This document shows positions 2,567 to 4,243 of a stretch of DNA of 10,003 bases, in pieces. The notes beneath the pieces are model-generated. The model was not told where the DNA came from. It saw only the letters and a list, made by a program, of their open reading frames with translations, and made no database searches. The DNA comes from a virus (Duplodnaviria > Heunggongvirae > Uroviricota > Caudoviricetes): the IMG/VR virus record IMGVR_UViG_2711768001_000003; one strand, given 5' to 3'. How positions within the stretch are numbered: position 1 is the stretch's first letter; the number at the start of each line of letters is the position of its first letter. Position numbers and translations under genes: made by a program.

Positions 2567-2570
2567 GTGC

Positions 2571-2600
2571 TTGACCAGACACATTGTCCGGGGCTATATT
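2571..2600 (+). promoter_or_regulatory. Candidate late promoter pR' (sigma70-like -35/-10)
   Basis: TTGACC (2571-2576), 18-nt spacer, TATATT (2595-2600), starting 5 nt after the Q stop. This is where 82/21-type lambdoid phages place pR' and the Q utilisation site. A hairpin GCCAG-caaaat-CTGGC (2609-2624) lies just downstream. Confidence 0.5.
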
Positions 2601-2661
2601 CCTCACGCGCCAGCAAAATCTGGCGTCGGGATTGGAACCCCGGATAGAGACCGCGACAGAC

Positions 2662-2683
2662 ACACGCCGCGAGCGTGTTTTTT
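2662..2683 (+). terminator. Candidate tR'-like intrinsic terminator
   Basis: Stem ACACGC (2662-2667) / GCGTGT (2673-2678), loop CGCGA, then TTTTT (2679-2683). It sits about 60-75 nt downstream of the predicted pR' start, as tR' does in lambdoid phages. Confidence 0.45.
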
Positions 2684-2811
2684 ATTGTCGTATGCACGCG
2701 CACATCTGAATTATGGTGGGGCGCATGGGGGAGCTGAAAAGCTCGCCGGTCGGTTTCCCGGTAGTTCCAACCCTGTGCGTCTCACCACCCGATGATTGGA
2801 ACCTGACGGTG

Positions 2812-2840
2812 TTGACAGTTTCAGGTTTGCAGTTTACATT
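2812..2840 (+). promoter_or_regulatory. Candidate sigma70 promoter upstream of the ORF6N-domain gene
   Basis: Perfect -35 TTGACA (2812-2817), 17-nt spacer, -10-like TACATT (2835-2840). Sequence only, no expression evidence. Confidence 0.35.
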
Positions 2841-3046
2841 TCCCCGCGGTGCTCAAAACACCTCGAAAGCGGTATCCACACCCGATAGCCATGTGGTTTT
2901 TTTGTGTCCAGAATTCTTGGTTTATGACCGGGTGTGCGGCTAATACAATACCAGCAATGGAAATACGCCCGCCGACTTTCGACGGTTTTGAGCGCCCGGT
3001 CACCCTCTCAAAAGGGGTAAATCAAAATATTCGAAAGGACATGTCT

Positions 3047-3610
3047 ATGAATCGCACGTCTATTGAAAAACTCCCGTCACTTACGCATAACCATCTTCCT
3101 GTCATGACAACAGAGCTGCTGGCTGATTTGTACGGAACAGAGCGCCAGCGTTTGACAAACAATTTCAATCGAAACAAAGAACGGTTTATAGAAGGTAAAC
3201 ATTTTTTCCTGATAGAAGGTGATGCGTTACGAGAGTTGAAGAACGAAAACTCTTTAAGAGTTTCTGTGAAAATTGCCCGTAACGTTCGCTCCCTCATCCT
3301 CTGGACAGAACGTGGCGCAGCCCGTCACGCCAAAATGCTCGAAACCGATCAGGCGTGGGAAGTGTTCGAAAAACTGGAAGACTGTTATTTCAACCAGAAA
3401 CAGCCACCAGCGGCACAAAACACATCTATCGAAAATGATGGATGCGCATTACTGAGCCACTTCGATAAACACGGTCAGGTTGAGTTCACGGAAAAGGTAC
3501 CCGCCGATGCGATGGTATGTACTCTGGAACGGTTTAAATTTTATCTGGAGCAACACGGGTGGATCGTTGCCCGTAAAGAGCAACTGGTGGAGCGGTTGAT
3601 GCGGTTTTAA
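3047..3610 (+). CDS. ORF6N/Bro-N-like domain protein (antirepressor-like cargo gene), about 187 aa
   Basis: The region LPVMTTELLADLYG...FFLIEGDALRELKNENSLRVSVKIARNVRSLILWTERGAARHAKMLETDQAWEVFEKLEDCYF resembles the ORF6N / KilA-N-like DNA-binding domain of phage antirepressor proteins (from memory). The C-terminal 75 aa or so are unassigned. Start chosen at ATG 3047 with AGGA (3036-3039) 7 nt upstream; in-frame alternatives at 3041, 2957, 2849. Visibly more AT-rich than neighbouring genes. Stop TAA 3608-3610. Confidence 0.7.
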   Translation: MNRTSIEKLPSLTHNHLPVMTTELLADLYGTERQRLTNNFNRNKERFIEGKHFFLIEGDALRELKNENSLRVSVKIARNVRSLILWTERGAARHAKMLETDQAWEVFEKLEDCYFNQKQPPAAQNTSIENDGCALLSHFDKHGQVEFTEKVPADAMVCTLERFKFYLEQHGWIVARKEQLVERLMRF

Positions 3611-3685
3611 AAATTTTTTCCGAAAACTTTACGATCGTAAAAAGTTGAATATCCTGTTAAGAGTGGTTACTACGCCACACAGCTT

Positions 3686-3711
3686 AAACCCGCCGATGAG
3701 CGGGTTTTTTT
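3686..3711 (+). terminator. Rho-independent terminator downstream of the ORF6N gene
   Basis: Stem AAACCCGC (3686-3693) / GCGGGTTT (3700-3707), loop CGATGA, followed by a 7-T run (3705-3711). Confidence 0.6.
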
Positions 3712-3761
3712 ATACCTGAAAAACGGCACAGGACGTTAAACGTGCTGGTGGTCAGATGAGT

Positions 3762-3790
3762 TTGCAGATGTGATGACATATGGTTATTAT
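3762..3790 (+). promoter_or_regulatory. Candidate promoter for the tRNA array
   Basis: TTGCAG (3762-3767), 17-nt spacer, TATTAT (3785-3790), placing a predicted start just before the first tRNA at 3800. Confidence 0.35.
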
Positions 3791-3799
3791 TCTGCCTCC

Positions 3800-3876
3800 G
3801 GCCCTTTAGCTCAGTTGGTCAGAGCGAGCGACTCATAATCGCCAGGTCGCTGGTTCAAGTCCAGCAAGGGCCACCA
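3800..3876 (+). tRNA. tRNA-Ile2 (anticodon CAU, lysidine type; ileX/ileZ-like)
   Basis: Cloverleaf folded by hand: acceptor GGCCCTT/AAGGGCC, D-stem GCTC/GAGC, anticodon stem AGCGA/TCGCC (one mismatch), loop CTCATAA with CAT at 3834-3836, T-arm GCTGG-TTCAAGT-CCAGC, encoded CCA. Anticodon and T arms match my memory of E. coli ileX rather than a Met tRNA. Confidence 0.85.
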
Positions 3877-3877
3877 A

Positions 3878-3954
3878 CCACCACTAGCTCATCCGGATAG
3901 AGCATCAACCTTCTAAGTTGACGGTGCGAGGTTCGAGTCCTCGGTGGTGGGCCA
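3878..3954 (+). tRNA. tRNA-Arg (anticodon UCU)
   Basis: Acceptor CCACCAC/GTGGTGG (unusual C1-G72), D-stem GCTC/GAGC, anticodon stem TCAAC/GTTGA, loop CTTCTAA with TCT at 3912-3914, T-arm CGAGG-TTCGAGT-CCTCG, discriminator G, encoded CCA. One nt after the preceding tRNA. Confidence 0.8.
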
Positions 3955-3956
3955 GC

Positions 3957-4032
3957 GCCGACTTAGCTCAGCAGGCAGAGCAACTGACTTGTAATCAGTA
4001 GGTCACCAGTTCGATTCCGGTAGTCGGCACCA
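3957..4032 (+). tRNA. tRNA-Thr (anticodon UGU)
   Basis: Acceptor GCCGACT/AGTCGGC, D-stem GCTC/GAGC, anticodon stem ACTGA/TCAGT, loop CTTGTAA with TGT at 3990-3992, T-arm ACCAG-TTCGATT-CCGGT (one mismatch), encoded CCA. Resembles host thrU-type tRNA as I recall it. Confidence 0.8.
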
Positions 4033-4035
4033 TAT

Positions 4036-4110
4036 GCGGGCATCGTATAATGGCTATTACCTCAGCCTTCCAAGCTGATGATGCGGGTTCGATTCCCGCT
4101 GCCCGCTCCA
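4036..4110 (+). tRNA. tRNA-Gly (anticodon UCC; glyT-like)
   Basis: Acceptor GCGGGCA/TGCCCGC, D-arm GTAT-AATGGCTA-TTAC, anticodon stem TCAGC/GCTGA, loop CTTCCAA with TCC at 4069-4071, T-arm GCGGG-TTCGATT-CCCGC, discriminator T, encoded CCA. Appears near-identical to E. coli glyT from memory. Confidence 0.85.
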
Positions 4111-4243
4111 GCGAGATTTGAGACGAAGGTTGTTATTTGCACTGACACAATATTGTGTGGGAATGTCTGACTCCTTACCATCTCCTGTTCTGTGATGTTG
4201 TTTTGTTGCAGTTCCAGTGCTCTTTTTTCAGCACCAGAATGGT

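Follow-up and report, generated by a model that had tools for sequence, protein, structure and literature searches.

What does a 187-aa ORF6N protein do between the antiterminator gene Q and the lysis genes of a prophage, and what controls its gene? The question is raised by positions 2567-4243 of a 10,003-nt stretch of Caudoviricetes DNA (IMG/VR record IMGVR_UViG_2711768001_000003; the whole stretch is called the window below). An original prediction, made from the letters alone, had read this interval as a cargo island in the slot where Stx phages carry stx: a self-contained, AT-rich gene with its own promoter and terminator, followed by a tRNA array. Our analysis points to a lysis-lysogeny control module and not to passive cargo. 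In this module an antirepressor gene of the type of anrP in the prophage Gifsy-1 would stand behind two tandem RNA cassettes of the kind known from P1 c4 and Gifsy-1 isrK; we put the probability of this reading at roughly three in four. The interest of the locus lies, in our view, in its control region, where two c4-like cassettes appear in series and where the small RNA (sRNA) family sRNA-Xcc1 takes on the look of a c4-like programmable lock.

RNA cassettes upstream of the ORF6N gene

The 480 nt between Q and the gene are not spacer. An Rfam scan of positions 2400-4300, in which elements were counted if they scored above the gathering score, placed four elements there, all on the plus strand: isrK, c4-a1b1, C4 and sRNA-Xcc1. 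They form two cassettes, the first (isrK and C4) spanning 2571-2802 and the second (sRNA-Xcc1) spanning 2812-3039, and the order of parts is the same in each: a promoter, a leader bearing a target, a terminator, an antisense RNA and a second target (Table 1).

The clearest pairing is found in cassette 2. The hairpin-2 loop of its Xcc1 RNA (CTTTCGA) is complementary to TCGAAAG on both sides, and the junction (GTTTTGAGC) is complementary to GCTCAAAAC upstream (b1) and, over 7 nt, to CTCAAAA downstream (b2). The Xcc1 7-mers have their complement once on each side, and the words occur 2-3 times in the window (9.5 kb). The duplex of Xcc1 positions 2968-2996 with the leader was computed at -35.8 kcal/mol, with 0/1000 shuffles as good, and the duplex with the ribosome-binding region at -17.7 kcal/mol, with 41/1000 shuffles as good. 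The element gave no match to the Rfam C4 model (RF01695); it fits RF02221, a family placed in no Rfam clan. RNAalifold on a plain MAFFT alignment of 50 Xcc1 elements recovered the inner two hairpins only, with compensatory changes, and the 5' strand of the outer stem was misaligned; that attempt was set aside, and the full structure was taken from the Rfam model.

The promoter that the original prediction had placed at 2812-2840 is indeed present. By itself a consensus match of this kind is not above chance (4 sites found against 2.4 expected), and it is credible because it is conserved in unrelated contexts: TTGACA, the spacing and TAnAtT are kept in four other Escherichia coli loci whose upstream flanks are unrelated (alignment A1). 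Homology with the other E. coli copies begins at 2848, and the -35 hexamer arises where other loci read GGTGGTGATA (alignment A3). The idea of a self-contained gene with its own promoter did not survive, as this promoter drives a leader and an antisense RNA complementary to the gene's own ribosome-binding site. For that reason, expression of the antirepressor in a lysogen is probably blocked rather than free.

Cassette 2 is present in 163 of 5,426 complete E. coli genomes. It stands upstream of an ORF6N gene at the prophage end in RM8082, of an 'Ant' gene in the nin region of O157:H7 TW14359, of a BRO-N gene in VL7S7, and of an ORF6N gene beside xis/int in S1-IND. Across five E. coli loci (A1) the loops read CTTTCGA, CTACTGA, CTACTTG, CTAGTAG and CTATCGC, and in all five the exact reverse complement is found at both flanks; the junction and its targets are constant. 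A wider comparison drew on viral contigs, where a pattern scan gave about 58 distinct elements, 45 distinct loci entering the pairing counts. Loop and junction were defined from the fold of the antisense segment alone, with the flanks unused, a complement was counted at 6 nt or more, and 60 nt were searched downstream. The loop complement was found downstream in 32/45 cognate cases (71%) against 7.4% of non-cognate pairs, and upstream in 36/45 (80%) against 11.9%; the junction complement was found downstream in 29/45 (64%) against 3.0%, and upstream in 27/45 (60%) against 6.4%. The 45 loci hold 42 distinct loops and 24 distinct junctions, and cognate duplex energies fell within the top 10% in 34-35 of 58 loci. 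Among the relatives, the downstream loop target a2 ends in the AG of AGGA or GGAG, with an ATG 40-49 nt after the element. A T run of at least five residues follows the covarying hairpin in 39 of 44 diverse loci with an upstream target pair, and in 26 of these 44 a promoter matching at 9/12 or better stands 11-15 nt 5' of the first target site.

These counts bear on an alternative in which Xcc1 is a trans-acting sRNA on unlinked host mRNAs and the flanking complementarity is incidental or the product of local duplication. Papers citing Chen et al. 2011 describe the RNA as trans-acting and under HrpG/HrpX control, and many host targets have been predicted for it. We nevertheless hold this alternative to be very improbable: loop complements lie in a locus's own flanks in 71-80% of the 45 loci against 7-12% in the flanks of other loci, the end of the downstream target falls consistently within the ribosome-binding site of the following gene, and loops varying so freely cannot all serve one conserved host target.

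Other parts of cassette 2 are conserved as well. Hairpin 1 of Xcc1 (2943-2964; 50 loci, alignment A4) keeps a near-invariant AAUACAAYACC...GGRAAU while loop and junction vary freely, and a protein, Hfq or an RNase could act there. The terminator hairpin of the leader (2876-2903, 44 loci) has a covarying stem and a conserved loop, CCCGAYAG or CCCGUCAG, which is unusual for a plain terminator; IsrK carries a similar CCGCGACAGAC stretch (alignment A6). Two features in A4 hint indirectly at RNase P processing: Xcc1 has a conserved U followed by G across its 5' edge, and its outer stem is followed by an RCC(A/C) tail. A leader peptide starting from the conserved ATG at this edge, comparable to the orf45 AUG in Gifsy-1, was rejected as a general feature: across 58 elements the frame was often closed after 13 codons, or the ATG was missing. 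The conserved U and G would suit an RNase P site better than a leader peptide. In the window ATG 2924, at the same edge, is in frame with the antirepressor gene without an intervening stop, and 2924-3610 reads as a 228-aa fusion. Homologues of 211-230 aa are listed in some databases; since the loop type CTTTCGA is without the TAG that other loop types put in the a2 target, gene callers yield proteins of this length, which are probably annotation artefacts.

Cassette 1 is built on a different antisense RNA. The full-length isrK model match starts at 2607, and the C4 segment folds at -44.9 kcal/mol (z -5.0). Its junction GTTCCAA (2764-2770) is complementary to both occurrences of TTGGAAC in the window, one in the leader and one downstream of C4. 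The three sites covary (A3), reading TTGGAAC/GTTCCAA/TTGGAAC here and TTGGCGT/ACGCCAA/TTGGCGT in Gifsy-1 and TW14359. Of the pairing elements of C4 in the window, the junction alone is clearly paired, and the second target is followed by a promoter, not by a ribosome-binding site. The promoter of cassette 1 keeps TTGAC and CGGGGCTATATTCC in Gifsy-1, VL7S7 and TW14359 (A3). Promoter and leader together follow a Q21-like Q in the window and in VL7S7, a Q82-like Q in Gifsy-1 and ninE in TW14359, and only the spacer between -35 and -10 differs. The same promoter might double as a Q-dependent late promoter; the available part of the text of the Q21 structure preprint gives no Q-binding element (QBE) sequence to compare with 2571-2600.

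When the loci are aligned (A3), C4 and the gene lie about 250 bases farther apart in the window than in Gifsy-1, VL7S7 and TW14359, and the extra bases are cassette 2. Landmarks are shared by both cassettes (A6), namely CGGGG[C/A]TATATTCC at the -10 region, CAAAA in the first hairpin loop, UUAUG followed by G across the 5' edge of the antisense RNA, and a CACCC tail. The two cassettes are probably diverged relatives.

The gene and its product

Judged by its sequence relatives, the gene appears to fall into a known class with nothing unusual about it, coding for an AnrP-type antirepressor in a Gifsy-1-type slot. The ORF6N domain that had been proposed for it was recovered in a Pfam profile search, the check suggested at the time (PF10543, residues 13-97, E 8.8e-21, 74.4 bits against a cut-off of 27.8). 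The best start is ATG 3047, which has AAGGA 7 nt upstream; ATG 3041 lies only 1 nt from AAGGA. The protein's 49% identity to Gifsy-1 STM2616/AnrP extends over 184 of 187 aa and takes in the C-terminal region (E 6e-58), and the protein matches PHROG 2379 'anti-repressor' end to end (E 4.4e-85). An antirepressor was among the roles offered in the original prediction; the label of function-unknown cargo no longer fits a full-length homologue of the tested AnrP. That the C-terminal region lacks an assignment held up: it has no Pfam match, and a Foldseek search of a medium-confidence AlphaFold2 model (38 sequences; predicted local distance difference test, pLDDT, 72.6 overall and 60-70 in the C-domain) against the PDB gave nothing below E 0.9. 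Sequence searches of the PDB and NCBIfam also gave no match. The exact protein is indexed in 3,937 blocks of an assembly collection, the closest named cluster being from Shigella sonnei.

The protein could also be imagined to regulate transcription by binding DNA, perhaps by activating the early or the Q operon or as a binder of the Bro/KilA-N sort, and would still be gated by the RNA cassettes. ORF6N lies within the KilA-N/Bro DNA-binding superfamily in Pfam, a membership reportedly set out by Iyer and co-workers in 2002. The C-terminal domain also matches phrog_995 'transcriptional regulator' (E 3.7e-8), and what the Gifsy-1 paper shows for AnrP is a rise in antQ-operon mRNA and phage induction, not repressor binding (Hershko-Shalev et al. 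2016, PMC4825925). However, the best, full-length PHROG matches are annotated anti-repressor, binding to the lysogenic repressor is established for Gifsy antirepressors (cited in PMC4825925), and the structure model found no significant DNA-binding fold match in the PDB. We consider a regulator of this sort unlikely and prefer an antirepressor, which, going by AnrP and the PHROG annotation, would bind and inactivate the prophage repressor.

In 46 loci the genes downstream of the Xcc1 element belong to the P22 antirepressor, Rha, Bro-N, ORF6N, AntA, KilA-N and ORF6C families, and in a bacterial-genome sample SymE_toxin follows in 3/23 loci, in agreement with the Xanthomonas integron preprint. 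In the nin region of TW14359 (locus L003, 1411-4182), isrK-C4 with an ORF6N gene (252 aa) is followed by Xcc1 with Ant and then by a KilAC antirepressor, so several RNA-gated antirepressors appear to lie within one phage. The RM8082 prophage has, on the minus strand at 3558-3756 of its locus (L002), an Rfam IS009 match of 224 bits that overlaps a tail fibre assembly gene (3515-4099).

The remaining alternative is a stand-alone moron, that is, cargo forming a self-contained unit expressed from the prophage for defence, superinfection exclusion or another host benefit and unrelated to the phage switch. The gene does have a conserved promoter and a terminator of its own, and it occupies the Q-to-lysis slot, where lambdoid phages put accessory genes. 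The GC content is slightly below that of the surroundings, and the AT-richness claimed earlier proved mild (46.3% GC, with 51.0% on the upstream side and 54.0% on the downstream side). C4-type RNAs in P1 also give superinfection immunity. PADLOC returned weak, domain-level matches to the candidate system PDC-S05 via the ORF6N domain (E 1.4e-7) and nothing more, and a defence reading was rejected. Against the moron stand three observations: AnrP, the closest characterised homologue, induces its own prophage; the ribosome-binding site is a covarying target of an antisense RNA from the same promoter, which favours tight silencing over constitutive expression; and the same cassettes precede classic antirepressor families in relatives. 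We regard a stand-alone moron as decidedly unlikely. The comparison with the stx slot holds for position, but relatives carry the same cassettes in the nin region, beside int/xis and at the prophage end; with cassettes at such varied sites, the gene is not a conserved core late gene, in keeping with what had been supposed.

A tentative order of events and the surrounding prophage

Taking P1 c4 and IsrK as models, we infer the following course for the antirepressor module. In a lysogen both promoters would fire, and most transcripts would end at the leader terminators, which by the same analogy would be leaky. Transcripts that read through would give stable C4 and Xcc1 RNAs, possibly excised by RNase P. 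The loop and junction of Xcc1 would pair with a2 and b2 and mask the ribosome-binding site, keeping the antirepressor off. The short leader would be the stronger partner of Xcc1, and an excess of leader would titrate Xcc1 and free the ribosome-binding site. The antirepressor would then inactivate the prophage repressor, early transcription would make Q, and Q-modified polymerase would pass all three terminators into the tRNAs and the lysis genes. The variable a' and b' sequences would set the specificity of each cassette, in the manner of heteroimmunity types. Xcc1 in the window would thus behave as a cis lock of the P1 c4 type, with the direction of regulation read across from P1 and Gifsy-1. 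For the family at large, we lean towards RF02221, which annotations across Proteobacteria treat as an orphan trans-acting or 'virulence' sRNA, being the antisense part of a portable cis cassette akin to P1 c4 and isrK, which would come in many orthogonal types and gate antirepressors in phages and SymE in integrons; here it would form part of a two-key lock.

Several points weigh against this scheme. The choice between repression and activation, and the order of events, are taken over from P1 and Gifsy-1; behind the direction of regulation stands, reportedly, P1 c4 work by Citron and Schuster in 1990 and by Heinrich and colleagues in 1995. The repressor gene of the prophage lies outside the window, and binding of the repressor by the protein is argued from homologues. 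The downstream Xcc1 duplex is modest, being made of two 7-mers. About one quarter of the elements are without a clear complement, including a shorter subfamily (L007, L017, L055 and similar). The Xanthomonadaceae copies, several but not all of them 5' of SymE, show, within 75 nt, only an upstream complement, so a target on the ribosome-binding site is not universal. In cassette 1, this subfamily shows weak pairing between the hairpin-2 loop of C4 and the hairpin-1 loop of isrK, some 5 bp counting a G-U pair. The orf45 counterpart runs from ATG 2713 to 2943 (76 codons) and ends 104 nt before ATG 3047, with cassette 2 between; the orf45 coupling of Gifsy-1 being broken here, cassette 1 may no longer control the gene.

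Downstream of the gene, an intrinsic terminator was found within a few bases of where it had been placed (3686-3707, against 3686-3711); its fold has a z-score of -2.8, and 1/200 shuffles folds as well. The tRNA array was also recovered, as four genes at 3800-4110, with Rfam tRNA model scores of 56-70 bits and the CCA end encoded by all four. The CAU tRNA is Met according to ARAGORN and Ile according to PGAP in the relative from E. coli VL7S7 (L001), whose array is 97.8% identical; in VL7S7 a 1.5-kb insert with a DNA methyltransferase splits the ORF6N gene from the array. If its CAU anticodon is lysidine-modified, the first tRNA reads AUA; the other three read AGA, ACA and GGA. All four codons end in A and are rare in E. 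coli.

The gene order, read from open reading frames (ORFs) and Pfam matches, is that of a lambdoid prophage and confirms the place of the gene between Q and the lysis cassette. For the Q protein, Pfam gives Phage_antitermQ (E 2.7e-52), and there is a distant match to the solved Q21 structures 6P18 and 6JNX (E 2.7e-7). The interval under study stops at 4243 because a masked run of 527 N follows. The IMG/VR contig L078 is 100% identical to window positions 1-4243 and supplies the first 243 nt of the masked run. In loci L127-L130, which encode exactly the same ORF6N protein, the equivalent stretch is about 662 nt, 135 nt longer, with one 98-aa ORF and the beginning of a 71-aa S21-type holin; from the tRNAs to this holin, these loci have no Pfam-supported gene, no Rfam match and no toxin gene. 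The genes for the small and large terminase are immediately preceded by an HNH endonuclease gene (5872-6222), as in the common HNH-terminase packaging layout. Searches of phage and E. coli databases gave no record covering at least 80% of the interval, whose arrangement is mosaic.

Table 1. Features of the interval and of the neighbouring prophage genes (window coordinates)
Feature	Position	Strand	Remarks
DnaB-like helicase, small ORF			first genes in the order read
RusA	1819-2190
Q antiterminator gene	2159-2566	+	Q21 family; counterpart of antQ in the Gifsy-1 locus
Cassette 1 promoter (PisrK counterpart)	2571-2600	+	TTGACC-18-TATATT; predicted start ~2607
c4-a1b1	2594-2646	+	RF03163, 50.1 bits (gathering 46.7); loop TTGGAAC 2632-2638
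isrK-type leader sRNA	2607-2683	+	RF01394, 77.5 bits (gathering 50)
isrK leader terminator	2662-2678 plus U run (to 2683)	+	terminator scan
C4-type antisense RNA	2709-2792	+	RF01695, 71 bits (gathering 45); position of orf45/STnc1160 in Gifsy-1
Second C4 target	2796-2802	+	TTGGAAC; downstream of C4
Cassette 2 promoter	2812-2840	+	TTGACA-17-TACATT, 10/12 consensus; predicted start ~2846-2848
Cassette 2 leader (isrK analogue)	2847-2903	+	~57 nt; b1, a1, weak terminator
Target b1	2851-2859	+	GCTCAAAAC
Target a1	2863-2869	+	TCGAAAG
Weak leader terminator	2876-2903	+	CCACA 2876-2880 / TGTGG 2892-2896, then T7 2897-2903
sRNA-Xcc1-type antisense RNA	2926-3009	+	RF02221, 77.4 bits (gathering 53), model positions 1-87 of 87
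Xcc1 hairpin-2 loop a'	2976-2982	+	CTTTCGA
Xcc1 junction b'	2985-2993	+	GTTTTGAGC
Target b2	3007-3013	+	CTCAAAA; 7 nt complementary to junction
Target a2	3031-3037	+	TCGAAAG; overlaps AAGGA 3035-3039 of the predicted antirepressor gene
Predicted AnrP-type antirepressor gene	3047-3610	+	187 aa; ORF6N N-terminal domain and conserved C-terminal domain without Pfam assignment
Intrinsic terminator	3686-3714	+	8-bp stem then T run (3686-3707)
tRNA array, four genes	3800-4110	+	CAU (Ile/Met), Arg-UCU, Thr-UGU, Gly-UCC
N run	4244-4770		masked
S21-type holin C-terminus			after the N run
R21-type endolysin	4871-5368
Rz, HNH, terminase, portal			in this order after the endolysin

Comparison with known systems

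Control of an antirepressor by a small antisense RNA is familiar from the immI region of P22 (sar - ant), where the RNA limits antirepressor translation. There sar runs across the ant start on the opposite strand, whereas the RNAs in the window lie on the same strand as the gene and upstream of it. Closer in layout is the immI of P1 and P7 (c4 - icd - ant1/2), in which one transcript holds first the antisense RNA and then its target, and the gene under control is again that of an antirepressor. The c4 RNA of P1 has two short elements with complements upstream (a1, b1) and downstream (a2, b2), the downstream target covering a ribosome-binding site, and from phage to phage the pairing elements differ with matching changes in the targets (heteroimmunity). 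Cassette 2 has the same plan, with complements to the a'/b' pair upstream at 2851-2869 and downstream at 3007-3037, the latter on the ribosome-binding site. It differs in that its RNA belongs to RF02221 and not to RF01695, has a shorter outer stem (9-11 bp) and carries the conserved AAUACAAYACC in a long hairpin 1. The target differs as well, being the antirepressor's own ribosome-binding site here and that of the upstream icd ORF in P1; moreover, the upstream targets here lie on a separately terminated short RNA, and two cassettes stand in series. The CI RNA of satellite P4 (seqA/seqC) is likewise a processed antisense RNA with complements upstream and downstream on its own transcript, and the Gifsy-1 authors call IsrK a structural homologue of P4 seqA (PMC4825925). 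In P4 the outcome is premature termination of replication-gene transcription, whereas here the target overlaps the ribosome-binding site of an antirepressor gene.

The Xcc1 RNA itself is known from Xanthomonas, where it is stable, measures about 88 nt and has predicted targets in trans (PMC2996969), and the literature has linked it to virulence regulators and noted it upstream of an ORF6N gene in APSE phages. In Xanthomonas campestris a member of the same RNA family lies upstream of, and in the same orientation as, the potentially harmful symE, with the mechanism left open in the integron preprint. The RNA is described there as trans-acting, virulence-linked and part of an integron cassette, whereas in the window it belongs to a prophage control region; the Xanthomonadaceae copies also differ in their one-sided complementarity, as noted above. 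In Xylella fastidiosa, Xcc1 is listed next to isrK and C4, and strain De Donno has all three adjacent (PMC12189769). Strain Temecula1 has five Xcc1 copies about 385 nt apart in one genomic island (PMC12189769), and these resemble a row of such cassettes carrying small cargo genes. In the literature searched we found no paper linking sRNA-Xcc1 to c4-type cis regulation; an earlier description elsewhere is possible. The module proposed here would offer a testable mechanism for an RNA that is annotated in many genomes and is read as a virulence-linked trans sRNA in Xanthomonas and Xylella. Loop and target occur naturally in dozens of variants, and these would form a ready set of probably orthogonal RNA locks, which bear on phage heteroimmunity, on prophage cross-talk in polylysogens and on synthetic biology. 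It would also turn a very common 'ORF6N hypothetical' of Escherichia and Shigella into an RNA-gated antirepressor beside Q, in a prophage type related to stx carriers.

The nearest relative in overall design is Gifsy-1. There PisrK drives isrK-orf45-anrP, and the long read-through mRNA is translationally silent; the short IsrK pairs in trans with the orf45/STnc1160 region and activates translation of orf45 and, by coupling, of anrP (PMC4825925). AnrP expression induces Gifsy-1 and raises antQ mRNA (PMC4825925), and in Gifsy-1 lysogens IsrK and STnc1160 were both strongly transcribed whatever the condition tested (PMC7067206). By Rfam matches and gene order, the Gifsy-1 layout is Q, isrK, C4, the 187-aa STM2616/AnrP, isrJ, tRNA-Arg, gogA and the lysis genes, and the window shares with it Q, isrK, C4, a 187-aa putative antirepressor, tRNA, and the lysis slot and order. 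In both, isrK has its own promoter and Rho-independent terminator directly 3' of the Q gene (which ends at 2566 here), and AUGs stand at +107 and +119 of the leader transcript (2713 and 2725 in the window). The pairs mapped by mutation in Gifsy-1, G28-C162 and G31-C159 (PMC4825925), correspond to the pairing of TTGGAAC 2632-2638 with GTTCCAA 2764-2770, one pair being changed on both sides. The two loci differ in several respects. Q is Q82-like with 225 aa in Gifsy-1 and Q21-like with 135 aa in the window, and in the window the gene is separated from C4 by an additional cassette, some 250 nt long and made of promoter, leader and Xcc1. Gifsy-1 orf45 is coupled to anrP, whereas its 76-codon counterpart here no longer adjoins the gene start. 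The window has four tRNA genes where Gifsy-1 has one, and isrJ (RF01393), which scores 100 bits in Gifsy-1, has no match in the window even at E<=1. The Rfam C4 model falls exactly on Gifsy-1 orf45/STnc1160, so the IsrK system is a c4-a1b1/C4 system. Thus, the IsrK system of Gifsy-1, which had been described as unique, falls in a broad family that includes P1 c4.

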